Origin: a virus
Length of the DNA: 64,000 nucleotides
IMG/VR virus record: IMGVR_UViG_3300025545_000003
Coordinates: 1 to 64,000 of that record
Direction: 5' to 3' (one strand)
Below, in pieces: positions 31,729-45,569 of the stretch (positions are counted from its first letter, which is position 1; the number at the start of each line of letters is the position of its first letter). A program made the translations under genes and the position numbers. The notes under the pieces are model-generated. The model searched no databases and was not told the origin of the DNA. It saw only the letters and a list, made by a program, of their open reading frames with translations.

Positions 31729-31845
31729 GTGAGGGCAACGGGGAAAGTTCCCCGGCCTGAGAAAAACCCTTGACAGGGCTTCAGGCTGCCGTTATTCCTT
31801 TGAGCAAGTGCCGCCGAATGATCGGCGAGCGGAGGTTTTGGTTCC

Positions 31846-32004: not shown

Positions 32005-32028
32005 CCAAGCTCCATAAGTGGACTGGTG

Positions 32029-32063
32029 AAAGCCGGGTAACCGAAAGGTTCCCCGGCTTTTTT
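32029..32063 (+). terminator. intrinsic terminator
   Basis: AAGCCGGG...GAAA...CCCGGCTT hairpin followed by a T-run. Confidence 0.75.
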
Positions 32064-32117
32064 GCTTCTTGGGCCTGAGTTGGAACGTAGGGCCTACCCG
32101 GTAGCACCGGGAGTTGC

Positions 32118-32137
32118 GGTCTTTGACAACTGAATAG
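32118..32137 (+). promoter_or_regulatory. rrn-type boxA antitermination element
   Basis: GGTCTTTGACAACTGAATAG resembles rrn boxA (TGCTCTTTAACA). Confidence 0.55.
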
Positions 32138-32290
32138 TACGTGAAAACGCACCAACGAGGGCAGGGCGGGTCTAGCCCACTCGTCCTGCCCTCATTTTCA
32201 TAATGAACCCGTGCCCCGGTGGGCACGGCCAATCCCCTAACGGGGCAAGGTCAAGCAGGCTCAACACCTGCCACGGGTTCCCATGTTCAT

Positions 32291-32367
32291 GGTGGACGTA
32301 GCTCAATAGGTAGAGCCCCGGGTTGTGATCCCGGTGGTTGCGGGTTCGAAGCCCGTCGTTCACCCCA
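32291..32367 (+). tRNA. tRNA-His(GTG)
   Basis: cloverleaf; G-1/C73; encoded CCA. Confidence 0.9.
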
Positions 32368-32535
32368 TGAGAGGGGCTAAGGTCTGGTGTCCCGCACGGA
32401 GACGTGCAAAGGCAGCGTCGTCTAGGGTAGGCCACCCAACGATGACGGCGTTGTACTAGACCACATTATTCCGGCGAAGCTCATCTGGTAGAGCGGGCGG
32501 TTGACAACCGAAGGGTCTTGCCTTACTTTGAGGGC

Positions 32536-32946
32536 ATGAACAAGAGCCCTAAAACTATCGGCGAGCGCAGTGAAGGCATGGTGCTGGCAGCCCTCTTGAG
32601 GGCGGGCAAGGTTGTGTTGCAACCCTTCGGGGACAACCAACGGTACGACCTTGTGGTGGATGAGGATGGGAAATTCATCCGGGTCCAGTGCAAGACCGCC
32701 CGCTTGAAGAACGGCGCTTTGGCCTTCGATACATGCTCCTCTCAAACCCATCGGGGGAAGGGGAAGCAAGATTACAGGGGGCAAGCGGACTTGTTTGGGG
32801 TCTATTCTCCTGACAGGGACGCCGTGTACCTTGTACCCGTTGAGGATGTCGGGGTTACCCAAGCCCGACTCAGGCTGTCCAAACCTCGTAATGGCCAATC
32901 CAAAGGCGTCCGCTTTGCGGCGGATTATCTTCTCGATCTGGGGTAG
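32536..32946 (+). CDS. PD-(D/E)XK endonuclease (group I intron-associated type)
   Basis: YDLVV and RVQCKT motifs; stop codon lies inside tRNA-Asn. Confidence 0.8.
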   Translation: MNKSPKTIGERSEGMVLAALLRAGKVVLQPFGDNQRYDLVVDEDGKFIRVQCKTARLKNGALAFDTCSSQTHRGKGKQDYRGQADLFGVYSPDRDAVYLVPVEDVGVTQARLRLSKPRNGQSKGVRFAADYLLDLG

Positions 32947-33009
32947 CTCAATAGGTAGAGCGCCGGTCTGTTAAATCGGTTGTTGAGGGTTCAAGTCCCT
33001 CCCCCAGAG
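32937..33009 (+). tRNA. tRNA-Asn(GTT)
   Basis: cloverleaf. Confidence 0.9.
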
Positions 33010-33056
33010 CTACAAGCTCCTCATGTTGTGGGTTCGAGTCCCACCGCCGGAGCTTG

Positions 33057-33938
33057 AAGGGCTGGCTGTTCCCTTTCGGGGGTTCAGTCTGTGACGGGCC
33101 GTATGGGGTCCGTAGGAAACATCGGAGCAATCCGGTGGAAGGGGAGTCCTTGTCACAGGCCCCCGCCAGTCACCTCTCGGGGTGGTTGGTCCGTCCATGC
33201 AAGCCGTAGGTAGCCCGGTCAGGGCGGGTCGTCCACCAAAGGCGGCTCTAGTCCCGAGTCTGGGGTTGGCCCCACCGACAGGTGGGTGAAGCATGGCCTG
33301 TCAGCGATGGCAGTCATGCGAAGGATAGGCGGGGACGCCTTGAGCCAACCAATCCAACTGGACGAAGGAGGATTCCCAAGCGGCAGTCGGTCAGTTTGAG
33401 GGGTGGGAGCCCTGAAGGCGGTCGGCATGTAGAGGGGCGAAGGGTGAAATCCCCGGAGTCCTGAAGACAGGGTAAAGCCCGCCGGGGCGAATACCAGAGG
33501 ACGTGTTGCATTCCCCTCCTCAAAAGGGAAGGGAACGACTGGCAGGGCACGCCCTTATGACATGCGAATTAGCTCAGTTGGTAGAGCGCATCCTTCGTAG
33601 GGATGAGGTCGTTGGTTCAAGTCCAACCCTTGCAAACAAAGGAAAGACCCTGCCGGTCTGTGTGGTAAGTGACCTAATCCCGTCCCCGCAAGGGAAGGCG
33701 GGCCGGTGAAGCCCCCAAGGTGGAGCCGGTTGGTGGGAAGCTGAAGCGTAGGGGCGGCCACCCCTGCCGGATGTGGAAAGCCGATGCAGCACAGGCGACG
33801 AGGGAAACGCCACCCTCCAACAAAGGCGGTCACGACTGGCTACCGGGGAGACCCGGTGGACACGGGGAGAACTTGGCGGGGGACCGTCAAGGTAATGCCC
33901 TGAGAGGCCGGTTATGAAAACGGGTAGTCTCACCGTTC
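33057..33938 (+). ncRNA. GOLLD-like large structured RNA with embedded tRNA
   Basis: about 880 nt without a credible ORF; many tetraloop hairpins; AAGGGC/GCCCTT closing helix; 3' AACGG-GTAGTCTCA-CCGTT. Confidence 0.5.
33563..33635 (+). tRNA. tRNA-Thr(CGT), imperfect acceptor stem
   Basis: D, anticodon and T arms intact; two acceptor mismatches. Confidence 0.6.
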
Positions 33939-33971
33939 CTCATTCTCCCCTCCCTTCGGGGCGGGGACTAT

Positions 33972-34048
33972 CGGAGAGTAGCGCAGCCTGGTAGCGCACC
34001 TGGTTCGGGACCAGGGGGTCGGGGGTTCGAATCCCCCCTCTCCGACCA
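33972..34048 (+). tRNA. tRNA-Pro(CGG)
   Basis: cloverleaf; CCA. Confidence 0.92.
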
Positions 34049-34080
34049 CGACAGAGACAGCCCGGAGAGACGGGCACCAT

Positions 34081-34154
34081 CGGGATGTGGCGCAGTCTGG
34101 CAGCGCACTTGGCTGGGGGCCAAGGGGCCGTCGGTTCGAATCCGACCATCCCGA
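34081..34154 (+). tRNA. tRNA-Pro(GGG)
   Basis: cloverleaf. Confidence 0.9.
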
Positions 34155-34162
34155 CTTTCAAT

Positions 34163-34233
34163 CCTGACCTAGCTCAATGGCAGAGCGCTCGGCTGTGGAC
34201 CGGGAGATTCGGGTTCAACTCCCGGGGTTAGGA
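34163..34233 (+). tRNA. tRNA with GTG anticodon (atypical His: no G-1, A73)
   Basis: cloverleaf. Confidence 0.7.
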
Positions 34234-34315
34234 CGGACAAGGGCTATGGGGTAGAGGCCGAAGTTGGACGAGGCACATTAGACTGGCTATACTCTCCTCA
34301 TTAGTAGGAGGTAGC

Positions 34316-34936
34316 ATGTACAAGGAAGCCACGAAGCAAGAGGCCCTCCGCCTTCGCCAACAGCAGCGCCTTTCCCTTCGAGAGATCCAAGCCCAAACAG
34401 GGGTCTCTAAAGGAACCCTCTCCAAGTGGTTGCAGGGGATGCCGTTAGACAGGGAAGAGGTGCGGGCAAAACTCCGCCTCAATGGAACCAGCAAGGGACG
34501 AGCAAAAGCTGACCGGGTTGAATCTGCCTTACACCGCCGTTTCGGTGTTCCCATGAACAGCCACTACAAGGCTAAGATTGCAGAAGCAGCGATCCTTCTT
34601 CGGGCTGGCTTGTTGGGGGTGGATACCTACCAGAGCCCCTTTGATGGAGACAAGGCCGACTGGGTGTTTGATGTGAAGGGACGCCTCCTTAAGGTGCAGG
34701 TGAAATGGGCGGCCACACCAGCCAAACATGGGGCACCACAAGTGAAAGTACGATGTGCCGGGGGCCGTTCTGGACTCCGGTGCTACACGGAGGGGGAATT
34801 CGACATTCTTGTAGGATATGACCTTTACACCGACACTGCCTATGTGTGGACGTGGGATGAGGTGAAGGATTTCACCAGCACTGTTTCCTGTTGGGATGAA
34901 GCAGAGGAACGCTGGGACAAGATCACGGTCTCATAG
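34316..34936 (+). CDS. HTH + PD-(D/E)XK endonuclease
   Basis: N-terminal SLREI..TGVSK.TLS.W; DWVF and KVQVK motifs; stop codon lies inside tRNA-Asp. Confidence 0.8.
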   Translation: MYKEATKQEALRLRQQQRLSLREIQAQTGVSKGTLSKWLQGMPLDREEVRAKLRLNGTSKGRAKADRVESALHRRFGVPMNSHYKAKIAEAAILLRAGLLGVDTYQSPFDGDKADWVFDVKGRLLKVQVKWAATPAKHGAPQVKVRCAGGRSGLRCYTEGEFDILVGYDLYTDTAYVWTWDEVKDFTSTVSCWDEAEERWDKITVS

Positions 34937-35001
34937 GGGAGTCAGGAGTCCCCACCTGCCTGTCACGCAGGAGATCCCGGGTTCAAATCCCGGTGGGACC
35001 G
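34927..35001 (+). tRNA. tRNA-Asp(GTC)
   Basis: cloverleaf. Confidence 0.88.
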
Positions 35002-35175
35002 CCGGAGGAAGTGGGTTCGAGTCCCATCTATCCCGCTAATCGCCGGGGGTGAAACCCGGAGGAACACAGTGGAAGCAGCAGGCTCCCCCTCGGGGGAGGC
35101 CGTGCAAGCGTAACTCCTGCCGTGGAAGCTGTGGAAAACCGGGCGAATCCCCACTTGGGACCTTGTGGACACGCA

Positions 35176-35243
35176 GGCTGGGTAGCTCCAATCGGCAGAG
35201 CGCTGGGCAACGCTTGCACGGCTTTGGGCCCAGAGGTAGGGGG
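35176..35243 (+). pseudogene. tRNA-like element with expanded anticodon loop
   Basis: D and T arms present; about 20-nt loop; weak acceptor stem. Confidence 0.5.
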
Positions 35244-35304
35244 TTCGAGTCCTTCCCTGGGTACACAAGAAGCGGGATGTCCAAGTTCCAACGGCGATTT
35301 TCAT

Positions 35305-35377
35305 GGGGGTGAGGTCTGCTGGGCGGACGCTGGCTTGTCAGGTCAGAACGGGGAGGGTTCGATTCCCTTCACTCCCG
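35305..35377 (+). tRNA. tRNA-Asp(GTC), atypical (A8)
   Basis: cloverleaf; G73. Confidence 0.7.
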
Positions 35378-35381
35378 CTTT

Positions 35382-35454
35382 GGGTCCGTAGTGTTAATGT
35401 AGCATCCCTGGCTCTTAACCAGGCGGGTGGCGGGTTCAAGTCCCCCCGGACTCA
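35382..35454 (+). tRNA. tRNA-Lys(CTT)
   Basis: cloverleaf with some mismatches. Confidence 0.7.
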
Positions 35455-35469
35455 CTGAAGTGTTTTCAT

Positions 35470-35542
35470 CCCTCCGTGGCGCAATTGGTAGCGCAAACGG
35501 CTCTTAACCGTGAGGTTGAAGGTTCGATTCCTTCCGGGGGGA
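35470..35542 (+). tRNA. tRNA-Lys(CTT)
   Basis: cloverleaf. Confidence 0.85.
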
Positions 35543-35560
35543 CTAGCGTTTGTACTTTGT

Positions 35561-35637
35561 GACCCCGTCGTCTAGTTGGCTAGGACACCAGACTCTCAAT
35601 CTGGAGATCGCCGGTTCAAACCCGGTCGGGGTTACCA
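35561..35637 (+). tRNA. tRNA-Glu(CTC)
   Basis: cloverleaf; CCA. Confidence 0.9.
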
Positions 35638-35638
35638 T

Positions 35639-35712
35639 CCTCCCGTAGCTCAGTAGGTAGAGCGGCGGCCCGATAAGCCGTGACAGCGAAGGTTCAATTC
35701 CTTTCGGGAGGA
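35639..35712 (+). tRNA. tRNA-Ile(GAT)
   Basis: cloverleaf; C33. Confidence 0.8.
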
Positions 35713-35739
35713 CTAGCAGAGGACTGTGGTGCTGGTTCA

Positions 35740-35813
35740 GCATAGATAGCTCAATTGGTTGAGCATCGGTCATTCAAACCGACGGTTACAGGTTCGATCC
35801 CTGTTCGTTTGCA
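35740..35813 (+). pseudogene. degenerate tRNA (TTC loop, poor acceptor stem)
   Basis: D, anticodon and T arms present; A33; broken acceptor stem. Confidence 0.5.
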
Positions 35814-35846
35814 ACAGCCCGACACCCGACCTTCCTCTGCTTCCCT

Positions 35847-35966
35847 CGAACAGTAGCTCAGTGTTGATGTACCCCCGCCAAGTTGCCGGTTGATGAAGCG
35901 GAAGGGCATCGATAGGGAGAGCGCCGGGACACTCGGAGGCCGCTGGTTCAAACCCAGCCTGTTCGA
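35847..35966 (+). ncRNA. tRNA-like RNA with a long hairpin inserted in the D-loop and no anticodon
   Basis: perfect acceptor, D and T stems; about 53-nt insert; 3-nt anticodon loop. Confidence 0.65.
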
Positions 35967-35970
35967 CTTT

Positions 35971-36042
35971 GCGGGCGTAGCTCAGTGGTAGAGCATCGGG
36001 TTGCCAATCCGAAGGTCGTGGGTTCGAATCCCATCGCCCGCT
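35971..36042 (+). tRNA. tRNA-Gly(GCC)
   Basis: cloverleaf. Confidence 0.92.
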
Positions 36043-36046
36043 CTAT

Positions 36047-36120
36047 GGTGTGGTCTTCTAATTGGCTAGGAAATCGGCCTTTCAAGCCGGGGAATGCGGG
36101 TTCGAATCCCGTCCACACTA
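36047..36120 (+). tRNA. tRNA-Glu(TTC)
   Basis: cloverleaf. Confidence 0.88.
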
Positions 36121-36293
36121 CAAGAAGTCCGGTAGCCACCGGACGCGGCCGGAGACACCCCCGGTCGTCAGTCAGGTTGGCATCTGACGAACAGGGTAGC
36201 CGATCCCCGGTAATGGGGCGTCGTCAGGGAGGCGAAAGTAGGGCAACCGAAGGACGGTCTGAAATACATCGTCCGGGTCTTACCCCTGATCAT

Positions 36294-36369
36294 GGGGCCT
36301 TAGCTCACTTGGGAGAGCGTCGGGATGGCATTCCGAAGGTAGCGGGTTCGATCCCCGCAGGCTCCACCA
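36294..36369 (+). tRNA. tRNA-Ala(GGC)
   Basis: cloverleaf; G3:U70; CCA. Confidence 0.92.
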
Positions 36370-36370
36370 G

Positions 36371-36398
36371 GGCTTAGTTGCAGATCTATCTGCGTTGA
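36371..36398 (+). promoter_or_regulatory. putative phage promoter
   Basis: GGCTTAG-N13-TGCGTTGA. Confidence 0.55.
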
Positions 36399-36472
36399 TG
36401 GGGCGTCGTCCAAAGGCAGGACCCTGGGTTTTGGTCCCAGTGATGAGGGTTCGAATCCTTCCGCCTCAGCCA
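36399..36472 (+). tRNA. tRNA-Gln(TTG)
   Basis: cloverleaf; CCA. Confidence 0.9.
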
Positions 36473-36486
36473 TTCAAGGAGGTGTC

Positions 36487-37287
36487 ATGAGCAAGATAGT
36501 AAAAGGCACCTCCCGGAGCGGTGTAGGAACTACGTTGGTGGTTCCGCAGCACCGGCTGGTGTTCGACATGGGGGCTCCCCTGGTGGAGTCCTTGGGCGTC
36601 CGTAAGGTGTTCATCACCCACGGGCACATGGATCACGCAGGGGCTCTGGTGTTCCACGCCAGCACACGGGGAATGATGGGAATGGGGCCGCCCCTGTTCC
36701 ACGTCCCGGCCTGGATGGAAGCCGACCTTCGGGTGATACTGAAGGCCGCCGCCCGCCTCAACGGTGGGGGAGTCCAGTTCGACATGGTCCCCATGGAAGC
36801 GGGCAAGAGTCACGATCTGGGAGGGCCTCGCAGAGTGGTGCCCTTCTACACCGACCACCGGCTACCGTGCCTCGGCTACAAGGTCTACCAGACCCGAAAC
36901 AAGCTCCGGGATGAGTTCATAGGACTTCCCGGAGAGGAGATCGGGCGGCTTCGGAAGGGTGGAACGGAAGTCACCCGTGAGGTAGAAGCCTTGGCACACA
37001 CGCACGTAGGGGACAGCCGGGTGACCGTGCTGGACAAACACCCCGAGGTGTTCCAGTCAGATGTGCTGGTGCTTGAGTGTACGTTCGTGGGCGACTACTC
37101 CTTGGAGGAAACGCACAAGCGGGGGCACACGCACCTGTCCGAACTGGCAGAGCGTGCGGAATTATTCAAGGACGTGAAGGCCGTTGTCCTGACACACTTC
37201 TCGATGCGACACAGCGAGAAGGAGGTCAAGGCGGAGGTCGCCAAGCTCCCCGAGTCCCTTCGGGACAAGATCCACCTCGTTTTCTAG
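36487..37287 (+). CDS. rnz: ribonuclease Z (tRNase Z, MBL fold)
   Basis: FDMG, ITHGHMDH, GDS, LECTF, GH.H and LTHFSMR motifs; located inside the tRNA array. Confidence 0.85.
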   Translation: MSKIVKGTSRSGVGTTLVVPQHRLVFDMGAPLVESLGVRKVFITHGHMDHAGALVFHASTRGMMGMGPPLFHVPAWMEADLRVILKAAARLNGGGVQFDMVPMEAGKSHDLGGPRRVVPFYTDHRLPCLGYKVYQTRNKLRDEFIGLPGEEIGRLRKGGTEVTREVEALAHTHVGDSRVTVLDKHPEVFQSDVLVLECTFVGDYSLEETHKRGHTHLSELAERAELFKDVKAVVLTHFSMRHSEKEVKAEVAKLPESLRDKIHLVF

Positions 37288-37371
37288 CCCCCTCTCGGGG
37301 GCATCATTGGGGCATAGCTCAATTGGTAGAGTACCGTTGAACTTTGTGCGCTTTACCCTTACACTAGAAGC

Positions 37372-37953
37372 ATGGGACGAAAGAGCCACATCTGGGACAC
37401 ACCCCCGGAACGCTTCCGCCAACTGGTACACACCCACACCACATGGAAAGGGCTCGCATTAGCCCTTGGGATGTCGATCTGTGGGGGGACATTCAAGACC
37501 ATCCGTAAAAGGATCCAGCAAGATGGGTTGGACGATCATCATTTGCGAGAGGGGGCCTCAAAACGAGGTGGCCTTTTGGCCGCTAAGAAACAGGAGCAGC
37601 CCCTTTCAGAGATCATGGTGAAAGATTCTTCCTACTCACGGTACCACCTAAAGGCCCGTCTACTGCGAGACAGGGTGTTGGAAAACAAGTGTGCCATGTG
37701 CGGTCTCGATCCTGTTTGGGAAGGAGATCCCCTCGTGATGGTTCTTGACCACATAAACGGGGAACCCCAAGACCACCGGGCAGGGAATCTGAGGTTGGTC
37801 TGCCCCAACTGCAACTCACAGCTTCCAACCTTTGCAGGTCGGAAAACGAAAAAGGGCGAGGTTCTTTGTGTGGACTGCGGGACACCCATCCACACAAGAA
37901 GTACCAGATGTCGTTCATGTAGCGGCAGGCATCGTTATTTTACTGGGGAGTAA
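37372..37953 (+). CDS. HNH endonuclease
   Basis: C..CG, LDHING...D.R..NLR.VCPNC; stop codon lies inside tRNA-Gln. Confidence 0.85.
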   Translation: MGRKSHIWDTPPERFRQLVHTHTTWKGLALALGMSICGGTFKTIRKRIQQDGLDDHHLREGASKRGGLLAAKKQEQPLSEIMVKDSSYSRYHLKARLLRDRVLENKCAMCGLDPVWEGDPLVMVLDHINGEPQDHRAGNLRLVCPNCNSQLPTFAGRKTKKGEVLCVDCGTPIHTRSTRCRSCSGRHRYFTGE

Positions 37954-38016
37954 CTCAACTGGCAGAGTGCCGTCCTCTGAAGGCGGATGTTGTGGGTTCG
38001 AGTCCCACCTCCCCAG
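37944..38016 (+). tRNA. tRNA-Gln(CTG)
   Basis: cloverleaf. Confidence 0.88.
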
Positions 38017-38087
38017 CCCATAGGTTGAAGGTTCAAGTCCTTCTGCCCCAGCTATGGCGGGACGCACAGGCAGTGCAGGCCGTCTAA

Positions 38088-38160
38088 CGCAGTGTAGCTC
38101 AACAGGTAGAGCGCTGGTCTCATAAGCCGGAGGTTCCCGGTTCAATTCCGGGCACTGCGA
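38088..38160 (+). tRNA. tRNA-Met(CAT), elongator-type
   Basis: cloverleaf; paired C1-G72. Confidence 0.85.
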
Positions 38161-38175
38161 CTACAGCGGTACTAG

Positions 38176-38249
38176 GGCGACGTAGCCAAGTTGGTTAAAG
38201 CACTGGTCTGCAAAACCAGAGATCCCCGGTTCGAATCCGGGCGTCGCCT
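38176..38249 (+). tRNA. tRNA-Cys(GCA)
   Basis: cloverleaf; U73. Confidence 0.88.
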
Positions 38250-38322
38250 CTTTTCGGACGGTAGCTCAGTGGTAGAGCTTCGGTAGCTCTCCTATCAGGA
38301 GTCTCATGGTAGGAGGTGGGCT

Positions 38323-38670
38323 GTGACAACCATCGTGAAATGTGAGCAGTGCGGCAGGGAGTACGTCCCGGACAGGAAAAAGGGACACCGTGGAACCCTT
38401 TGCAACTCTTGTGTGGTCAACACCAGGAGAGCAAGCGTAAAGGAAAAGGCAGTCTCCTACAAAGGAGGGGCGTGCGCCATCTGCGGTTACGACCGGTGTG
38501 CGAGAGCCTTGGGGTTCCACCATAAGGACCCTGCCAAGAAGGATTTTCCTCTTGGGGCCAACTACACGAGGTCGTGGGACAAACTGAAGGTGGAGTTGGA
38601 TAAGTGCATCCTCCTCTGCGCCAACTGTCACGCTGAAGTTCATGATGGGATGGTTGAACTCGGGGGGTAG
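38323..38670 (+). CDS. HNH endonuclease
   Basis: YKGG.C..CGY, FHH.DP and KC.LLCANCH motifs; stop codon lies inside tRNA-Ile. Confidence 0.85.
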   Translation: MTTIVKCEQCGREYVPDRKKGHRGTLCNSCVVNTRRASVKEKAVSYKGGACAICGYDRCARALGFHHKDPAKKDFPLGANYTRSWDKLKVELDKCILLCANCHAEVHDGMVELGG

Positions 38671-38733
38671 CTCAGTGGCTAGAGCGAACGGCTGATAACC
38701 GTTAGGGCGAGGGTTCGAGTCCCTCTCTCCCGA
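38661..38733 (+). tRNA. tRNA-Ile(GAT)
   Basis: cloverleaf. Confidence 0.88.
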
Positions 38734-38877
38734 CTTTTACTACCGTGGGGCCGGAGGTTCGAATCCTCCTCGTCCGACCAGTAGGGAAAGGTGGCGGTCT
38801 GAGAGCCTGCCGGGTTCTGCAAGGCCCAATGGTTCAACGTCTGTTGCAGCAGGCCCCGTGCGCCGCCCTGCGTTCAT

Positions 38878-38947
38878 GCCCTCGCCCGTGGATCGGGGCT
38901 TTGGTCTTCTAAACCGGAGGTCGAGGGTTCGATTCCTTCCGGGGGCG
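38878..38947 (+). tRNA. tRNA-Arg(TCT), truncated D-arm
   Basis: acceptor, anticodon and T arms intact; lacks the U8/A9 connector. Confidence 0.6.
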
Positions 38948-39006
38948 CTAGTTTGTCTATGGGCAGGGGATGGTAGAGTGGATCGACTCCACGAGGAGAT
39001 ACCGTC

Positions 39007-40179
39007 ATGGGCTACAACGTCCCCGAACCTTACGCCTCGCTCCTTGCCACGTACCCCGACGTAGCGAACGTCAAGTACGTGTCCCCACCGGATGCTAACC
39101 ATCTGGAGGGAACGGGGGACGGCTCATTGGTCAACCCGTACAGGGGCATCCAGACGGCCATCGATGCTTTTCCGCCCACAGAGATGCCTCCGCCTGACCC
39201 GGCGGACATGGGCCCAGAGGATCTGGTCAACCTGTTCCGGTTCATCGTCGTCAATTCGGGTGTGTACGACGAGAGCCCCATTATCACAGAGGCAGGGCTC
39301 TGGTCCTTTCAATCAGCAGGGCAGGTCCTGCTGATCTCCCCTGTGGCTTTCGCTTACCTGTGGGATCCTGAGCACGAGCCGCCCCCGTCCATTGACGACA
39401 TGCGGTTCTTCCACCTGAACCCGGATGAAACCAAGCTTGACGCTTGGGGCATGTTCATCTTGGACATTCAGCCCCTCTACGGTGCCCCGAAAGACAAGAT
39501 GATCGGCGGCATCGGCAGGAACGGCAGCACCGGGGGTCTGCAGATGTGGACCCTTATGGGCGGGATCGTCTACGAGGTGGAAGCACCCCTCGGTGGCTGG
39601 ACGCACACCCCGTCGCCGTCCATTAGCTTGAAAGATGTCTACGGCCTGGTACTCGTCCCTGGAGAGAACGGGGATTGGGAAGCCGACATCAACATCGACT
39701 GTGACCGAGTCTCGTTCAACTACTTCGAAGTCCTGGGGCTGGAGAAGTACGACGTCGAGATCCTCAACTCCGCCTTCAGTGGCCTTGAGCAGTACTCTGG
39801 ACCTGGTGCCCCTATCTACACGCAGACCTGCCGGTTCTGGGCCAGCAACTGCAACATCACGGGCGACGTGTTCGTGGCAGACGCCGACATCGTGTTCGAC
39901 CACGTTTCCATGAGCGGTGGAGACCTGATTTTCAGGACCTACTGGTCCATCCTGGACTGCAACCTGGACGTCAACGAGTGGGAACACACACAGTCCCCGT
40001 CGGGATCGGTCATCATCAACACCTACTTCGACGTGAACTCGTGGGGTGCGGCCCTTCCCCTGAACGCCCTGAACGTCTGCGCCACCACCTGTGCGATGAG
40101 CAGTTCGGCCCTGTCCAGCTTGCCCGTCCCACATAGCAACTACGCATCAGTCACGAACAGCGTCGTGATCCCCCCGTAA
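39007..40179 (+). CDS. hypothetical acidic protein with a GDGS..NPY..IQ.AID motif (possible beta-helix)
   Basis: GAGGAG RBS; motif typical of DUF1565-like N-termini. Confidence 0.6.
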   Translation: MGYNVPEPYASLLATYPDVANVKYVSPPDANHLEGTGDGSLVNPYRGIQTAIDAFPPTEMPPPDPADMGPEDLVNLFRFIVVNSGVYDESPIITEAGLWSFQSAGQVLLISPVAFAYLWDPEHEPPPSIDDMRFFHLNPDETKLDAWGMFILDIQPLYGAPKDKMIGGIGRNGSTGGLQMWTLMGGIVYEVEAPLGGWTHTPSPSISLKDVYGLVLVPGENGDWEADINIDCDRVSFNYFEVLGLEKYDVEILNSAFSGLEQYSGPGAPIYTQTCRFWASNCNITGDVFVADADIVFDHVSMSGGDLIFRTYWSILDCNLDVNEWEHTQSPSGSVIINTYFDVNSWGAALPLNALNVCATTCAMSSSALSSLPVPHSNYASVTNSVVIPP

Positions 40180-40182
40180 CCT

Positions 40183-40255
40183 GCCCCAGTAGCTCAGTGG
40201 ATAGAGCATCGGTCTCCTAAACCGAGGGCCGCAGGTTCGATTCCTGCTTGGGGCA
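40183..40255 (+). tRNA. tRNA-Arg(CCT)
   Basis: cloverleaf. Confidence 0.9.
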
Positions 40256-40333
40256 CTCCCTTCAACAGCACCGCAACAAGGAGAACACCATGGTACTTCG
40301 TCTCAAACAGCCGCCGACCCCCATTCGTTTACT

Positions 40334-40409
40334 GGGCCGGTAGCTCAACTGGATAGTCAGCAAGCGGCTTTTAACCGCTAGGTTCCGGGTTCAAGTCCCG
40401 GTCGGCCCA
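40334..40409 (+). tRNA. tRNA-Lys(TTT)
   Basis: cloverleaf. Confidence 0.88.
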
Positions 40410-40414
40410 CTATT

Positions 40415-40488
40415 GCGGACGTAGCCAAGAGGTAAGGCATCGGGCTTCCACCCCGTGAGCGCCGGTTCGATTCCGGTCGTCCGCTCCA
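40415..40488 (+). tRNA. tRNA-Gly(TCC)
   Basis: cloverleaf; CCA. Confidence 0.88.
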
Positions 40489-40495
40489 CCAACAG

Positions 40496-40523
40496 GGCTT
40501 AGGTAGTTCCTCTATTGCGTAGA
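40496..40523 (+). promoter_or_regulatory. putative phage promoter
   Basis: GGCTTAG-N13-TGCGTAGA. Confidence 0.6.
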
Positions 40524-40897
40524 CACCCATGGGTAGGATGTCAGCCTCGGTGAAGCTGGGTACGCAGTGGAGGGGCACAAAACGACGCCTGCACCGCCCG
40601 TGAGATAGGCCCAAACGGGGAACCGTCAACCGGGGAGGGGGTGGAAGTCCTCTTGACCCGCCCGGAAGGGTCCTGCGTTGAGCCGTCATCTTGAGGGCGG
40701 CCTTGAAGGGCAGCGTAGGTACACCCCCTGAAGGACGCCCTTTGGCTGGTGCTTGGACTGGCCCCTGTGGATGAGGGTTTGTATCAACCAAGCTGGAAGC
40801 GGAGTACTCGTCCCCATTGTTGAATCCCACCTTCGGGTGCGGTACTGGACGAGCCGGAAGTACCCCATGGCACGGCGTACTTCCGGCTGTGGGCGTG
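40524..40897 (+). ncRNA. candidate structured ncRNA (about 370 nt)
   Basis: own promoter motif; no credible ORF; paired ends; perfect AGCCGGAAGTAC/GTACTTCCGGCT hairpin. Confidence 0.4.
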
Positions 40898-40898
40898 A

Positions 40899-40970
40899 GG
40901 GCGTATAACTCAGCGGAAGAGTGCCGTCTTGACAAGGCGGAAGTCCCTGGTTCAATCCCAGGTACGCCCA
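40899..40970 (+). tRNA. tRNA-Val(GAC)
   Basis: cloverleaf. Confidence 0.9.
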
Positions 40971-40987
40971 CTGAATCGGAGGGCTAG

Positions 40988-41173
40988 GTGACGAACAAGG
41001 ACAAGTGGTTCGCAACCTGTATGGTGTTGATGCTTGTGACAGGCTTCGGTCTTGTGGGGCTTGGCCTCGACTCAACGCTGGCATCGATCTTTGAGGTGGC
41101 CGCAGCCGCCATCTGGCTCTTTGGAGTTCCGAAAGTCAGCCGTAGAGCACACCAGTACATCTACGGCAGGTAG
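40988..41173 (+). CDS. small two-helix membrane protein
   Basis: GGAGG RBS; hydrophobic segments. Confidence 0.55.
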   Translation: MTNKDKWFATCMVLMLVTGFGLVGLGLDSTLASIFEVAAAAIWLFGVPKVSRRAHQYIYGR

Positions 41174-41179
41174 TTTTGG

Positions 41180-41251
41180 CGCGGGGTAGGGAAGTGGCAT
41201 CCTCCTTGGCTCATAACCAAGGGATCGGCGGTTCAAGTCCGCCCCCCGCAA
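41180..41251 (+). tRNA. tRNA-fMet-like (CAT)
   Basis: C1:A72 mismatch; CGCGGGG acceptor. Confidence 0.8.
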
Positions 41252-41398
41252 CCTCTCGGGCAATCTGACTCGGCCCGTAAGCCCGCCCCACGTCCCCGTC
41301 AGGGTGACGAGCACCCGAAAGGGTAGGGCAACAGGAGCAGACCGTGGGAAGACGCTTTGTACAGCGTCGGAATGCGTCCCGGAGGGACGCCCCACCGT

Positions 41399-41470
41399 GC
41401 GGGTGTAGTTCAGGGGTAGAACGTCAGCTTCCCAAGCTGGATGTCGTGGGTTCGAATCCCATCACCCGCT
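41399..41470 (+). tRNA. tRNA-Gly(CCC)
   Basis: cloverleaf. Confidence 0.9.
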
Positions 41471-41474
41471 CTAT

Positions 41475-41547
41475 GGGGCCTTAGCTCACTTGGGAGAGCG
41501 CCGCTTTTGCAAGGCGGAGGTAGCCGGTTCGATCCCGGCAGGCTCCA
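41475..41547 (+). tRNA. tRNA-Ala(TGC)
   Basis: cloverleaf; G3:U70. Confidence 0.92.
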
Positions 41548-41550
41548 CTA

Positions 41551-41605
41551 TGGGGAGGGCGGGGTGGTCAGGCCCGAAAGGGAGCAGCCATCCTGACCCT
41601 ACCCA
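41551..41605 (+). ncRNA. ffs: minimal SRP (4.5S)-like RNA, helix 8/domain IV
   Basis: GG-TCAGG-CCC-GAAA-GGG-AGCAG-CC symmetric-loop signature on a long hairpin. Confidence 0.7.
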
Positions 41606-41608
41606 CCA

Positions 41609-41636
41609 GGCTTAGCCTCCCGTTCACCTGTGTTGA
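41609..41636 (+). promoter_or_regulatory. putative phage promoter
   Basis: GGCTTAG-N13-TGTGTTGA. Confidence 0.7.
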
Positions 41637-41659
41637 AGAGGTGGACGACGGAGGACGAC

Positions 41660-42106
41660 ATGAGCGTTACATTTTGGTGCCCCGAAGCTCCCCGAGAGGC
41701 CATCGAGACCCCTTGCTGGGGCGAGTGCGACGAAACCTGCCCCATGTGTCACGGCACCAACGTGACCACGGAACAGGTCAGCCCGCACGAGATGAACCTC
41801 GCCAACGCCAACGCCTACAACATCCTCCTCGCCTTGGGTGTCCAGAGTGACGAATCCATGTGCGGCGGGTGGGAGACCCCCGAGGACATCCGCACCATCA
41901 GGGCGGCGATCCTCAAGGCCCGCAACGTGACAGGCCGCAGGGAAGGGGCACACCGAGACGCCGAATCCTACGGCGGGCCGGGAACTGGAACCTGCCGGGT
42001 CGTTTCGCAGGGCTACACCGACGAGCAGGTACTCGACCGGCTGACCCGGTTGGACAAGCTCCTCGCCTACGCTTTGGAGAACAGTCACCGGGTGGTTTGG
42101 GGATGA
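41660..42106 (+). CDS. hypothetical protein
   Basis: GGAGG RBS; follows a promoter motif. Confidence 0.6.
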   Translation: MSVTFWCPEAPREAIETPCWGECDETCPMCHGTNVTTEQVSPHEMNLANANAYNILLALGVQSDESMCGGWETPEDIRTIRAAILKARNVTGRREGAHRDAESYGGPGTGTCRVVSQGYTDEQVLDRLTRLDKLLAYALENSHRVVWG

Positions 42107-42681
42107 GTGCTCACCGTGAGCGTGTGAAAATGCTCAAGCGGGTCAACGCCCACCAGCAAGTCAACGACCCCTTCTGGTTGTCCGGCTACACCGACGGAAG
42201 CCACCATCCCGACACAGGGAAGGGCGGCGTGGGCCTGTGGGTACGGGACAACGAGACCCGAATCCTCAAGGCTATACCGACCCCTCCGTGGGCTGTGAAC
42301 TCCAACCTCGTGGAACTGTTCGGGGTCTGCGCCGCCATTGAGACGGCCCTGACGGAACTCACACAGGAAGCCAACATCCTCGTCATCAAGACGGACAGCC
42401 AGAGCACGGCCAACTGGTTCGGCTGGCAGGGCAACAAGTCCGTACCGAAGCAGCCTGAAGCCCTCGAGATGATGCAGCACGTCCTAGAGCTTGCCACCGA
42501 CCGCCGAGTGAAGGTGGTCGTCAAGTGGGTGAAGGGACACCAAGGCACGGGCAGCGTCGTGGGCTACTTGAACAACCGGGTCGACAAGATGGCCCGTGAT
42601 GCACGACTGAAAGGTGTACCCTCTCGCTGGTCCTGCCGGGTCAACGAGGAACGCAAGCAAGGGCCTGTAGCTCAACGGTAG
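42103..42681 (+). CDS. rnhA: RNase HI-like protein
   Basis: YTDGS, N..EL, TDSQ, KWVKGH and N..VD motifs. Confidence 0.8.
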   Translation: MSAHRERVKMLKRVNAHQQVNDPFWLSGYTDGSHHPDTGKGGVGLWVRDNETRILKAIPTPPWAVNSNLVELFGVCAAIETALTELTQEANILVIKTDSQSTANWFGWQGNKSVPKQPEALEMMQHVLELATDRRVKVVVKWVKGHQGTGSVVGYLNNRVDKMARDARLKGVPSRWSCRVNEERKQGPVAQR

Positions 42682-42733
42682 AGCCTCCCGCTCATAACGG
42701 GACGGTCGACGGGTTCGACTCCCTCCGGGCCCA
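42661..42733 (+). tRNA. tRNA(CAT), probably Ile2
   Basis: cloverleaf with GGGCCTG acceptor; overlaps the rnhA 3' end. Confidence 0.8.
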
Positions 42734-42783
42734 CTAGCCCCTAAACAGCAAGCAGCAGGGTAGGATAAGGCAGGAGGTGCCTC

Positions 42784-43023
42784 ATGCCGGATCTACCCTA
42801 CGTGATGCTCACTGGACTCATCCTCATGCTGGTCGGTGTTCCCCTCTGGATGTACCGCTCAGAGAAGAAGAAGGTGGAGGCCGGGTGTTGCGGGAAGCCG
42901 TGGATCTCCTACTGCCGTGACTCACAGGGCGGCATCGGCTTGAACTGTCAGGAGTGCGACAACGGCACTTGGGTATCCTACTACCGCAAGGGCTTCGTTG
43001 AGGGCGAACAGCAACCATTCTAG
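42784..43023 (+). CDS. small membrane-anchored protein
   Basis: AGGAGG RBS; N-terminal TM helix. Confidence 0.55.
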   Translation: MPDLPYVMLTGLILMLVGVPLWMYRSEKKKVEAGCCGKPWISYCRDSQGGIGLNCQECDNGTWVSYYRKGFVEGEQQPF

Positions 43024-43093
43024 GCTCGTAGCTCAGTGGGAGAGCGCCTGCTTCACACGCAGGAAGTCCCCGGTTCAAAACCGGGCGGGCCTA
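43022..43093 (+). tRNA. tRNA-Val(CAC)
   Basis: cloverleaf. Confidence 0.88.
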
Positions 43094-43111
43094 CTTTGAA
43101 GGAGGGCTAAC

Positions 43112-43639
43112 ATGGAAAGCACACGCAGAGGGTTCCTTGCAGGAGCCGCTGGAGTCACAGGTTGGCTCCTGTTCGGCAAGGGTGCCGAAGCCGCAGCGAA
43201 GGCCGAGGGCAACCGTGTCCTGCGGGAGTTCGATGAGGACGTTGAGGGGTTTCCGCATCACGTCATCGAGATGCAGTTGACCTACGACAACCCGATGCTC
43301 CAGTTCGACGTGCCACTGCCGGACTCGGACTTCGATGGCCTACAGATCAGCATCCCAAGGCGTCAGACGGTGGGCCGCCACACGGCGACGGAGCTTGTGG
43401 ACTACCACAAGCGGAGCCAACCCGACGGTGACATCTGGGGGATCATCCGCCAGCGTGTACCCCAGATGGCACAGGCGAGGGTGAAGAATCCCGCCTACGG
43501 CGACCACAAGATGCACATCGCCACGGTGGTGTGCCACTGCCCGAGCGGGATCGAGGTGGGCATGACGGTGTTGCCCGTAGGCGTGACCGTCGAGGACATG
43601 CACCTGACCATCCCGGCAACGCTGTTGCCGCAGTCCTGA
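43112..43639 (+). CDS. hypothetical protein with Tat signal peptide
   Basis: TRRGFL twin-arginine motif, hydrophobic region and AEA site. Confidence 0.65.
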   Translation: MESTRRGFLAGAAGVTGWLLFGKGAEAAAKAEGNRVLREFDEDVEGFPHHVIEMQLTYDNPMLQFDVPLPDSDFDGLQISIPRRQTVGRHTATELVDYHKRSQPDGDIWGIIRQRVPQMAQARVKNPAYGDHKMHIATVVCHCPSGIEVGMTVLPVGVTVEDMHLTIPATLLPQS

Positions 43640-43657
43640 CAACGCACAAGGCTCCAA

Positions 43658-43733
43658 GGGCGAGTAGCGCAGTGGAAGTAGCACCGGCTTTACAAGCCGT
43701 AGGTCGTGGGTTCAATCCCCACCTCGCCCACCA
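43658..43733 (+). tRNA. tRNA-Val(TAC)
   Basis: cloverleaf; CCA. Confidence 0.8.
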
Positions 43734-43737
43734 TTCA

Positions 43738-43765
43738 GGCTTAGCCGGACGCCCGTCCGTGTAGA
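43738..43765 (+). promoter_or_regulatory. putative phage promoter
   Basis: GGCTTAG-N13-CGTGTAGA; ATG at 43773. Confidence 0.7.
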
Positions 43766-43772
43766 GAACCTC

Positions 43773-44078
43773 ATGAAGCAGGAAACCCAAGAGTGCCCCC
43801 TGTGCCACCGTGACTGCCCACAGGCGATCATGACGGAGCACCACTTGAAGACCCGCAGGGTGGACAAGGACGACACGGCGATGCTGTGCCGGGAGTGCCA
43901 CAAGACGGTACACGGGCTCTTTGACAACAAGGAACTACGGGACTCGTCCAGAGGGCTGGACACGGTCGAGGGGCTGCTTGCAGACCCCTTGATCCGAAAG
44001 GCCCTCTCCCACATCAGGAAGCTCCCGCCCGGTCAGTTCATGCGGATGTATCGGGCCGGACGCCGCAAGAAGCGCTAG
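43773..44078 (+). CDS. small HNH-domain protein
   Basis: CPLC, EHH and LCRECH..VH motifs. Confidence 0.7.
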   Translation: MKQETQECPLCHRDCPQAIMTEHHLKTRRVDKDDTAMLCRECHKTVHGLFDNKELRDSSRGLDTVEGLLADPLIRKALSHIRKLPPGQFMRMYRAGRRKKR

Positions 44079-44094
44079 ACACCAATCCAAACAT

Positions 44095-44168
44095 GCCCCG
44101 GTAGCTCAGTGGATTAGAGCACACCCCTGCGGAGGGTGGGGTCGGAGGTTCGAATCCTCTCCGGGGTA
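44095..44168 (+). tRNA. tRNA-Arg(GCG)
   Basis: cloverleaf. Confidence 0.88.
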
Positions 44169-44228
44169 CTTGTGCGCCCGTAGCTTTATGGTTTCTCCTC
44201 CGGTATTATCCGGGCAACAGGAGGAACC

Positions 44229-44741
44229 ATGCCAACCTGCAAGAAATGTGGTGTCTCATTCCCCAACAGGATAACGGTTGAGGGGGGCAGGCGAAACATC
44301 TCCAGACGGAAATTCTGCCTGACATGTTCCCCTTGGGGGTCTCGAAACCGAAAAGACCTGAGTGCCCCCTCGATTACCAGCGGAGTGAAAACCTGCCCTC
44401 GGTGTGGGGACGTGAAGGAACTCACTGAGTTCTACACCAGACGGAGAGGTAAGGAGTCCGAGCCTTCCTCCTACTGTAAGGCATGCGCCGCAGAGGAAGC
44501 ACGGGGACGTATGCGGGCATTGAAAGCCCGTTGCGTTGAGTACAAGGGAGGCGGGTGCCGGGTTTGTGGGTACTCGAAAAGCCTCGCTGCGTTGGATTTC
44601 CATCACAGGGATCCCAAGGAGAAAGGTTACGGGATTTCGCAGATCCGAGGTTGGAAATTCGAACGGGTAAAGGAAGAATTAGATAAATGTGACCTTCTGT
44701 GTCGGAATTGCCACTCAGAGGTTCATGACGAGGCCCTGTAA
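44229..44741 (+). CDS. HNH endonuclease with zinc fingers
   Basis: YKGG.C..CGY, FHH.DP and KC.LLC.NCH motifs; stop codon lies inside tRNA-Arg. Confidence 0.85.
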   Translation: MPTCKKCGVSFPNRITVEGGRRNISRRKFCLTCSPWGSRNRKDLSAPSITSGVKTCPRCGDVKELTEFYTRRRGKESEPSSYCKACAAEEARGRMRALKARCVEYKGGGCRVCGYSKSLAALDFHHRDPKEKGYGISQIRGWKFERVKEELDKCDLLCRNCHSEVHDEAL

Positions 44742-44804
44742 CCCAGTGGATAGGGTGCCTGACTTCGAATCAGGTTGTCGCAGGTTCGAGTCCTGCCAGG
44801 GCCA
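44732..44804 (+). tRNA. tRNA-Arg(TCG)
   Basis: cloverleaf. Confidence 0.88.
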
Positions 44805-44841
44805 TCAGGTTGGGAGTTCGAATCTCCCCGGGCGTTCTTTT

Positions 44842-44918
44842 CAGGGGGTAGCTCAGTCTGGCAGAGTCCCGGCCTTGGACGCCGGTTGTCGCGGGTTCGA
44901 ATCCCGCCTCCCTGACCA
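44842..44918 (+). tRNA. tRNA-Pro(TGG)
   Basis: cloverleaf; CCA. Confidence 0.92.
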
Positions 44919-45018
44919 GCCGTAGGAAAAGCGTTGATCACGTATTGTTCAGATAGGAGTATGAGGGGGAGTGCCATGACCGGCATGTCGTAATCAACAA
45001 CCCTCCGAGGAGGCGGAG

Positions 45019-45564
45019 ATGGAAACCTTGGTTTTGAGTCAGAGTTACACGCCGATAAGCCGAGTCCCGTGGCAGAAGGCCATCACATGGGTCGTGCTGG
45101 ATCGTGCCGAAGTCGTAGAAGAGTACGACGAGGCCCAGATCCGCTCCGCCTACAAGGTCTTCCCGATGCCGTCGGTTATCCGTCTGCTCCACAACGTGAC
45201 TGGCTTGTTCCGCAAGGGTGCGAAGTTCAACCGCAAGAACGTATGGCTCCGTGACAAGGGGAAGTGCCAGTACTGCGGGACCAAGGTCTCCATGTCTGAC
45301 TTCACGTTCGACCACGTCGTGCCCCAGTCCAAGGGCGGGCGCACCAAGTGGGAGAACATCGTCGTGGCCTGCTACAAGTGCAACCAGCGGAAGGGTGACC
45401 TCACCTTGGAGAAGGCACGGATGCGCCTGCGTGTCCCGCCGGTAAAGCCGAGGTCGCTGCCCGGTATGGCGTTCCCGACGTTGACGTGGGGAGACAAGAT
45501 GCCGGAGACGTGGAAGGACTACCTCGGCTCCTACAGCTACTGGAACCAGTCCCTCAAGGAATGA
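45019..45564 (+). CDS. HNH endonuclease (McrA-like family)
   Basis: PSVIRL, RD...CQYCG and DHVVP..GG...W.N.V.AC..CN motifs. Confidence 0.88.
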   Translation: METLVLSQSYTPISRVPWQKAITWVVLDRAEVVEEYDEAQIRSAYKVFPMPSVIRLLHNVTGLFRKGAKFNRKNVWLRDKGKCQYCGTKVSMSDFTFDHVVPQSKGGRTKWENIVVACYKCNQRKGDLTLEKARMRLRVPPVKPRSLPGMAFPTLTWGDKMPETWKDYLGSYSYWNQSLKE

Positions 45565-45569
45565 CCTGG

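Follow-up and report, generated by a model that had tools for sequence, protein, structure and literature searches.

Nested cassettes in the first tRNA cluster

This analysis concerns a set of nuclease genes that lie inside interrupted transfer RNA (tRNA) genes of a virus, record IMGVR_UViG_3300025545_000003. The window, i.e., the whole stretch of DNA under analysis, comprises the first 64 kb (64,000 nucleotides) of this 106,830-bp record, and the scan for broken tRNA genes described below covered both strands of the 106.8-kb genome. The record has a G+C content of 61.7%, contains 52 tRNA genes called by ARAGORN in two clusters, together with one transfer-messenger RNA (tmRNA), and is abundant in homing-type nucleases. 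No structural genes were recognized among the genes seen in it. Consequently, the record is probably part of a larger phage genome.

At five sites in the window, the elements follow the same order: the 5' piece of a tRNA gene, an open reading frame (ORF) for a nuclease, a complete tRNA gene, and the 3' piece of a tRNA gene. Here, the broken gene is referred to as the outer tRNA and the complete one as the inner tRNA. A sixth cassette is housed in the second tRNA cluster (genome 69800-74400, minus strand), outside the window. The components are as follows.

32470-32510, plus strand: cassette 1, outer 5' half; acceptor TCCGGCG, D arm, anticodon-stem 5' strand, then TTG(ACAACCG)
32536-32946, plus strand: cassette 1, nuclease of the PD-(D/E)XK type, I-Ssp6803I family, 136 aa; stop codon TAG
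32937-33009, plus strand: cassette 1, inner tRNA-Asn(GTT); called by ARAGORN, Rfam 70.6 bits
33023-33052, plus strand: cassette 1, outer 3' half; variable loop ATGTT, T arm, acceptor CGCCGGA, discriminator G
34248-34285, plus strand: cassette 2, outer 5' half; acceptor GGGGTAG, class II-like D arm, stem TTAGA, loop CTG and then the break
34316-34936, plus strand: cassette 2, nuclease with HTH and PD-(D/E)XK domains, 206 aa; stop codon at tRNA positions 8-10
34927-35001, plus strand: cassette 2, inner tRNA-Asp(GTC); ARAGORN and Rfam
35004-35035, plus strand: cassette 2, outer 3' half; T arm, acceptor CTATCCC, discriminator G
37308-37338, plus strand: cassette 3, outer 5' half, Gln-like; acceptor TGGGGCA, D arm, stem CCGTT
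37372-37953, plus strand: cassette 3, nuclease of HNH subfamily A, 193 aa; stop codon TAA
37944-38016, plus strand: cassette 3, inner tRNA-Gln(CTG); ARAGORN and Rfam
38022-38051, plus strand: cassette 3, outer 3' half; T arm, acceptor TGCCCCA, discriminator G
38255-38286, plus strand: cassette 4, outer 5' half; acceptor CGGACGG, D arm, stem TCGGT and then AG
38323-38670, plus strand: cassette 4, nuclease of HNH subfamily B, 115 aa; stop codon TAG
38661-38733, plus strand: cassette 4, inner tRNA-Ile(GAT); ARAGORN and Rfam
38740-38780, plus strand: cassette 4, outer 3' half; CT and anticodon-stem 3' strand ACCG, T arm, acceptor TCGTCCG, discriminator A, CCA
44174-44185, plus strand: cassette 5, outer 5' remnant; GCGCCCG TAGCT, starting 5 nt past tRNA-Arg(gcg)
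44229-44741, plus strand: cassette 5, nuclease of HNH subfamily B, 170 aa; stop codon TAA
44732-44804, plus strand: cassette 5, inner tRNA-Arg(TCG); ARAGORN and Rfam
44805-44836, plus strand: cassette 5, outer 3' half; T arm, acceptor CGGGCGT, discriminator T
71616-70930, minus strand, outside the window: cassette 6, with the 5' half at 71616, the ORF of HNH subfamily A at 71563-71054, inner tRNA-Leu(tag) at 71059-70979, and the T arm at 70953-70930

The broken genes were located by a scan for T arms outside called tRNAs, in which the next 7 nt had to pair at 7/7 positions with a 7-mer that lies no more than 3 kb upstream and is accompanied by a D arm. The scan gave the five window pairs (32470/33051, 34248/35034, 37308/38050, 38255/38776, and 44174/44835) as well as the sixth pair (71616/70930). 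Further orphan T arms, when read through, belong to full tRNA or tRNA-like genes missed by ARAGORN, such as Trp(cca) and a second Tyr-like gene; for the remaining ones, the genome-wide scan revealed no 5' partner with a canonical D arm. When all six 5' halves were compared with all six 3' halves, complete 7/7 pairing occurred only between cognate halves, with values of 1-6 for non-cognate combinations; for instance, the 5' acceptor of cassette 1 pairs fully only with 33045-33051. The chance of 7/7 pairing is 0.0004-0.003 per position. Because pairing is restricted to cognate halves and canonical D arms follow the 5' acceptors, the outer halves are real tRNA remnants.

The inner tRNAs of all five window cassettes are called by both ARAGORN and Rfam. 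For the anticodons Asn-gtt (the sole Asn tRNA), Gln-ctg, Arg-tcg, and Leu-tag, the genome has no copy other than the inner tRNA gene; Asp-gtc and Ile-gat each have a second, free copy. A preliminary description, based on the window sequence, had proposed five cassettes with this layout, whose outer halves re-pair as acceptor stems; the cognate half pairs were confirmed at the coordinates it gave, together with the ORFs and the inner tRNAs. Its statement that the outer and inner tRNAs share the first base pair and the discriminator is true for cassettes 1-4 and extends to the sixth.

The nuclease gene and the inner tRNA gene are closely fused. In all five window cassettes, the stop codon of the ORF coincides with inner-tRNA positions 8-10 (U8-A9-G10 or U8-A9-A10), for which an expectation of about (1/3)^5 applies if the reading frames are random. 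In the sixth cassette, the stop codon corresponds to positions 4-6. The location of the stop codon within the tRNA indicates that the nuclease and the tRNA form a single transcription unit with no spacer. Cleavage by ribonuclease (RNase) P at the 5' end of the inner tRNA would then strip the stop codon from the nuclease mRNA, and nuclease expression may be kept low in this way.

Nucleases of the cassettes

The ORFs of cassettes 1 and 2 match PF11645 with 126.9 and 44.9 bits, respectively, above the family cut-off of 26.1 bits, and PDB entry 2OST with E-values of 1.1e-7 and 9.1e-5; the latter ORF also contains an HTH_23 domain (27.3 bits). Their alignments to 2OST keep YDLV and VQxK, i.e., the D...(E/Q)xK core. 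Entry 2OST, which the PDB search names only 'Putative endonuclease', is taken here to be the structure of I-Ssp6803I.

The other four ORFs are HNH-like. That of cassette 6 reaches 30.3 bits against PF01844, above the cut-off of 21.4 bits, and the ORF of cassette 3 shares 34% identity with it (E 3e-23), with a Pfam HNH_3 score of 20.4 bits, under the cut-off. The ORFs of cassettes 4 and 5 are 40% identical (E 3e-24) and carry the motif HH...N...CxxCH; the former has no Pfam match and the latter scores 18.2 bits for PF01844, under the cut-off. Judged by these matches and motifs, the six nucleases represent two folds and three families: the I-Ssp6803I-type PD-(D/E)XK enzymes, HNH-A, and HNH-B. 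The earlier division of the window nucleases into two PD-(D/E)XK and three HNH enzymes is thus right as to the two unrelated folds, and the HNH ORFs are to be split further into two subfamilies.

A search of positions 31000-46500 against Rfam gave no group I intron or other ribozyme at E<=1; the matches at this threshold are tRNAs, one GOLLD RNA, and noise. The gap between the 5' half and the ORF measures only 20-45 nt and includes a ribosome-binding site. The layout is therefore intron-less, as had been supposed.

Relatives of the cassettes in other phages

The association between nuclease and tRNA is not confined to this genome. Among 18 IMG/VR loci with a relative of the cassette 1 ORF (38-66% identity), tRNA-Asn(gtt) lies directly downstream in 10 and directly upstream in 2. 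One of these loci, L010, displays the full nest with both anticodon-stem strands kept, and another, L001, has a 5' half reading ...CTGT. tRNA-Gly(gcc) and tRNA-Val(gac), which likewise have G34, come after the relatives of the cassette 2 ORF. Homologues of HNH-B occur in 413 cultured-phage records, many of them annotated as HNH endonuclease; in Felix O1 the ORF runs into tRNA-Ile, and in contig L053 an HNH-B gene and tRNA-Ile(tat) stand between cognate halves. In Escherichia phage mistaenkt and in Enterococcus phage EFDG1, the HNH-A relative is linked to a tRNA-Leu(UAG). The cassette 3 nuclease had no relative in IMG/VR viral contigs.

The join of the stop codon to tRNA positions 8-10 is also found in the relatives L001, L003, L006, L051, and L053; in L007 it is shifted by one base, to position 9. 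Because homologues elsewhere are joined to a tRNA, often of the same isotype, nuclease clade and isotype travel together across distant phages, as exemplified by Asn, Ile, and Leu. The view of nuclease and tRNA as one unit is thus borne out by its conservation in other phages. A further candidate for a nested unit, the difference between Kuttervirus PM10 and GG32, was rejected: it consists of a free-standing nuclease beside tRNA-Asn, with no nest.

Searches for empty sites gave negative results. A megablast comparison of the tRNA cluster with cultured phages returned tRNA-sized matches only. Exact-pattern searches for intact versions of the outer tRNAs produced no matches for cassettes 1 and 2 in genome contigs, for cassette 4 in metagenome contigs, or for L053 in viral contigs.

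Break positions and identity of the outer tRNAs

All breaks fall between tRNA positions ~12 and ~44, mostly at the anticodon arm. In cassettes 1 and 2, which encode the PD-(D/E)XK enzymes, the outer tRNA is kept to U33-G34 and diverges thereafter. The anticodon arm is pseudo-palindromic, and this break point is close to its dyad, the expected cutting site of an oligomeric enzyme on such a sequence. In cassette 3 the break follows position 31. Both strands of the anticodon stem persist in cassette 4, lengthened by 2 bp, with the loop replaced; its insert starts with AGCT directly past position 31, as does that of the nested relative L053. In cassette 5, only ~12 nt of the 5' side remain. Cassette 6 (HNH-A) breaks at positions 32-34, and the loop CTTAGAA, together with the 3' stem strand, is preserved in its 3' flank.

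Comparison of the outer halves with 279 phage tRNAs by nearest neighbor gave a decisive isotype only for cassette 6 (Leu) and a suggestive one for cassette 3 (Gln). When the halves were instead joined at all possible junctions and submitted to tRNA calling, the procedure was too permissive for isotype typing; cassettes 2 and 5 yielded no full-length tRNA, and the loops obtained for cassettes 3 and 4 were all non-canonical, so that rebuilding from the halves is limited to cassette 1 (in the GAC reading) and cassette 6.

The clearest case is cassette 6, whose outer tRNA can be read directly: since the loop CTTAGAA is retained, the gene is tRNA-Leu(UAG) and agrees with the inner tRNA in its anticodon. 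The resident tRNA-Leu(gag) at 70026-70113 has an acceptor stem identical to that of this outer gene. The outer tRNA of cassette 3 is probably Gln, as it has U1-A72 and G73 and its 5' half best matches Gln tRNAs. For cassette 4, Ile is plausible; the outer gene has C1-G72 and A73, like both Ile tRNAs of this genome and the nested Ile cassette of L053. Arg is hinted at for cassette 5, whose outer acceptor shares 6/7 positions and the discriminator T with the genome's tRNA-Arg(ccg). To this extent the outer gene begins like a tRNA-Arg, as originally claimed, and its 5' remnant is only ~12 nt long.

The remaining two outer genes are ambiguous. In cassette 1 the body, U1-A72, G73, and the variable loop are Asn-like, and the outer halves of L001 and L010 read Asn. 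The seven bases past the stem, on the other hand, are TTGACAA, and a join at 41/42 creates a perfect 73-nt cloverleaf with anticodon GAC. In cassette 2 the 5' half has a class II-like, Tyr-like D arm and a Tyr-like stem, with a best genome match to tRNA-Tyr 72559-72644, and the discriminator is G, as in Asp. The proposal that each cassette replaces its target with an isoacceptor is accordingly shown once (cassette 6) and likely in two further cases (Gln and Ile), while Asn and Asp are ambiguous and Arg is only hinted at.

A separate observation concerns the cassette 1 outer arm. Joined at 41/42 (32497-32510 and 33021-33022), it reads GGCGG-TTGACAA-CCGTC, and the arm of the resident tRNA-Val(gac) at 40899-40971 reads CCGTC-TTGACAA-GGCGG, i.e., the same arm with the stem strands swapped. 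This likeness may be due to chance.

Alleles of one tRNA-Leu(UAG) locus in Enterococcus phages

A comparison of filled and intact alleles is possible in a group of cultured Enterococcus phages, the Schiekviruses. Phage EfV12-phi1 has an intact 85-nt class II tRNA-Leu(UAG). In EFDG1, the first 34 nt of this gene (through U33) and its last 27 nt (T arm, acceptor, and discriminator) are unchanged, and 572 bp stand in place of the intervening 24 nt. The insert consists of an HNH gene and the first 47 nt of a new tRNA, which is completed by the T arm and the 3' acceptor strand of the old gene. Phage Bop, whose flanks are ~98% identical, has the new short-arm tRNA-Leu(UAG) alone, without the nuclease. 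The homologous insert is thus present in EFDG1 and absent from EfV12-phi1 and Bop.

These alleles show a cassette with an HNH-A homologue that splits a tRNA gene immediately 5' of its anticodon; the gene agrees with the cassette tRNA in isotype and anticodon. They also reveal that cassette design varies, with a partial spare tRNA in EFDG1 versus a complete one in the window. The nuclease cassette seems to have turned a long-arm tRNA-Leu into a short-arm one, and loss of the nuclease can leave a permanently remodeled tRNA, as in Bop. The preliminary description had suggested that relatives lacking the insert should carry one intact tRNA of the same isotype. An allele of this kind exists in EfV12-phi1, opposite the filled one of EFDG1; it comes from another phage group, and none was found for the phage studied here.

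Homing cassettes as the proposed explanation

Taken together, the units are probably selfish, intron-less homing cassettes, in which the gene for a site-specific nuclease and a complete tRNA gene have been copied into the anticodon region of a resident tRNA gene. During co-infection, the nuclease would cut the uninterrupted allele in or beside the anticodon arm. The break would be repaired from the cassette-bearing genome, with the old tRNA halves acting as homology arms, and repair would copy in the nuclease gene and its tRNA. The interrupted gene would be dead, because a ribozyme is absent and most of the anticodon arms are no longer complete, and the cassette tRNA would supply a working tRNA, so that invasion would cost little. 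In this model, cleavage would be specific, the inner tRNA gene would be immune, and the outer and inner isotypes would always be equal.

A broader interpretation, which is favored only slightly over its contrary, is that PD-(D/E)XK enzymes and two HNH lines have converged on insertion at the tRNA anticodon together with a whole or partial spare tRNA. The result would be a splicing-free counterpart of mobile introns and a principal cause of the turnover of phage tRNA sets. Permanent remodeling of a tRNA would be part of this, as in the Enterococcus series that leads from a class II tRNA-Leu via the interrupted gene to a short-arm tRNA.

Several observations weigh against homing with replacement. 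Replacement is unneeded for Asp-gtc and Ile-gat, given their free second copies, and the outer isotype is ambiguous in cassettes 1 and 2 and unsettled in cassette 5. Comparison of tRNA-Asn genes linked to a homing endonuclease gene with free ones revealed no common anticodon-arm difference that could explain immunity. The Pfam HNH scores of three ORFs lie under the cut-off. In IMG/VR viral and metagenome contigs, searches with a 390-aa ORF and the RNase Z-like ORF gave no relatives of this phage. The inner tRNA of EFDG1 uses the target's own 3' third, unlike the layout in the window. Finally, the inner tRNA is all that Bop has of the unit, so more than one order of events is conceivable, and a tRNA may be resident in one case and imported in another; because this allele combines a remodeled tRNA with the lack of a nuclease, the order has to be argued for each genome and not assumed.

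Of the alternatives, the one that survives best, while still unlikely, is that whole nested modules were acquired ready-made by recombination within the tRNA array. The outer halves would then be homology arms from earlier hosts, and the units would still be homing elements, with no resident gene broken in this genome. In cassettes 1, 2, 4, and 5, the outer halves are indeed unlike the remaining tRNAs with the inner isotype in this phage; the pairing of all outer stems is still perfect, suggesting a recent arrival of the modules; and the inner tRNA of Bop stands alone. These points are opposed by the identity of the cassette 6 outer acceptor stem with that of a resident tRNA-Leu, by the 6/7 match of the cassette 5 acceptor to the resident tRNA-Arg(ccg), and by EFDG1 versus EfV12-phi1, which represents the in-place interruption of a resident gene.

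It is very improbable that the outer tRNAs are still functional, either by removal of the insert as a protein-dependent intron or by rejoining of the halves by the phage RtcB. The genome does encode an RtcB ligase (56220-57632, minus strand), cassette 4 keeps both anticodon-stem strands, and cassette 6 preserves a nearly whole tRNA. Yet the Rfam search found no ribozyme, the 3' strand of the anticodon stem is gone in cassettes 2, 3, and 5, with the anticodon absent or cut short, this strand is at best decayed in cassette 1, and the loop of cassette 4 is gone. Excision of the inner tRNA by RNase P and RNase Z would, moreover, leave ends of a kind that RtcB does not join. Rejoining by RtcB was considered and rejected. 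A coincidence of decayed or duplicated tRNA genes in a dense array with free-standing nuclease genes, which are common in phage tRNA clusters (SegB (PMC2330249), Felix O1, My1, and the GIY-YIG gene of this genome), is hardly credible in view of the same order found six times, cognate-only pairing of the flanks, breaks mostly at the anticodon arm, and the same nest in the unrelated contigs L010 and L053.

Comparison with known systems

One of the closest described parallels to homing cassettes of this type is I-Ssp6803I, the homing enzyme of the group I intron in the Synechocystis tRNA-fMet gene, which binds a 23-bp pseudo-palindrome as a tetramer (PMC1995217, PMC3384342). It belongs to the same PF11645 family as the nucleases of cassettes 1 and 2, it is likewise encoded within a tRNA gene, in the anticodon region, and the anticodon arm offers an oligomeric enzyme a naturally pseudo-palindromic target. 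In contrast, the cassettes described here have no group I intron; the tRNA is not restored by splicing, and a complete second tRNA is carried instead.

The free-standing GIY-YIG enzyme SegB of phage T4 cuts within tRNA genes and spreads with neighboring tRNA genes (PMC2330249). As in the cassettes, its gene is located in a phage tRNA cluster and is co-oriented with the tRNAs. However, SegB lies between genes and recognizes the T arm, whereas the cassettes sit inside their presumed target at the anticodon arm, flanked by both halves.

Fused nuclease-tRNA units are also present in cultured phages: HNH/tRNA-Ile in Felix O1, PD-(D/E)XK/tRNA-Ile in My1, and HNH/tRNA-Leu in mistaenkt and EFDG1. Their nucleases are homologous to those described here (31-50% identity), the end of the ORF falls at or within the tRNA, and the isotype agrees for Ile and Leu. 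Unlike the window cassettes, most have no outer halves, and EFDG1 has only the 5' half, its inner tRNA borrowing the T arm and 3' acceptor strand of the target. As far as the searches went, these units carry annotation only and have no published interpretation.

Fractured genes are protein genes that a free-standing homing endonuclease gene has divided and whose function split inteins restore (PMC2677866). The likeness is that a gene is broken by a nuclease gene without an intron and its function is rescued by another device; the difference is that rescue proceeds there by protein trans-splicing, while here a spare gene copy is supplied and the halves are abandoned. Archaeal split tRNA genes and those with bulge-helix-bulge (BHB) introns differ in that the halves here give no full cloverleaf with an anticodon, except in cassettes 1 (GAC) and 6. 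Full-text literature searches revealed no published account of a tRNA gene that hosts a nested cassette of nuclease and tRNA.

If the interpretation as homing cassettes is correct, several consequences follow. It would explain the frequent linkage of nuclease and tRNA genes in phage tRNA clusters, provide a mechanism for the fast gain, loss, and remodeling of phage tRNAs, account for many of the 'pseudo-tRNA' fragments in phage annotations, and point to a source of natural nucleases that target tRNA-gene sequences. Homing endonucleases are not known to persist in essential genes other than via self-splicing introns or inteins, or by lying between genes. The cassettes would represent a third survival route, in which the host gene is broken and a spare copy is supplied. 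With six cassettes that draw on three nuclease families, this one genome constitutes a compact test bed, and direct homing tests are possible with EFDG1, EfV12-phi1, and Bop, which are cultured phages.

Neighboring genes and further observations

Several other structured RNAs and tRNA-like genes are located among the cassettes. A GOLLD RNA (33496-33936, plus strand; 154.4 bits versus a gathering score of 150 in Rfam) lies directly 3' of cassette 1, with tRNA-Thr(cgt) at 33563-33635 nested within it; the whole ORF-poor structured stretch 33053-33950 may be part of this RNA. A tRNA at 35740-35813 (plus strand) is recognized by Rfam with 46.9 bits and has no ARAGORN call. Its acceptor stem is poorly paired and its anticodon loop, seemingly of 8 nt, includes TCA, so it may be of an opal-suppressor-like or frameshift type. 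Two tRNA-like genes at 35176-35263 and 35847-35967 (plus strand) contain extra sequence with no ORF: one has a loop of ~17 nt replacing the anticodon loop, and the other has ~45 nt within the D loop, and carries C1-G72 and A73. Both genes could be unusual tRNAs or the scars that lost cassettes have left. A match to the bacterial small signal recognition particle RNA is found just 3' of tRNA-Ala (41537-41624, plus strand; 33.6 bits, under the gathering score of 40).

The window also includes further protein genes. An ORF with a metallo-beta-lactamase fold, located within the tRNA cluster at 36487-37287 (plus strand), has relatives named ribonuclease Z by the Joint Genome Institute (JGI). An encoded CCA is absent from most tRNAs here, which a phage RNase Z would suit. 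A 100% identical copy of the protein is present on 9 public contigs, the longest of 148 kb, and there is one 67% relative. An RNase H-like ORF at 41860-42681 (plus strand; PF00075, 54.9 bits) overlaps the first 21 nt of tRNA-Met 42661-42734. The RtcB-type ligase matches phrog_1075 with an E-value of 7e-69, and its role is probably the repair of cleaved tRNAs. ORFs resembling nicotinamide phosphoribosyltransferase and nicotinamide adenine dinucleotide (NAD) synthetase occupy 16709-20003 (plus strand); NAD salvage genes are frequent in large phages.

Outside the window, the second tRNA cluster contains a free-standing GIY-YIG/NUMOD3 nuclease gene (71697-72332) and a QueF-like ORF flanked by two tRNA-Phe genes. 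The Trp(cca) and second Tyr-like genes without an ARAGORN call belong to this cluster as well. The tmRNA is located at 67424-67789, and the record also has a GroEL gene. The ribonucleotide reductase gene (genome 93720-96893, plus strand) is split by an intein with a LAGLIDADG domain, which constitutes a fourth family of homing nucleases in this genome.

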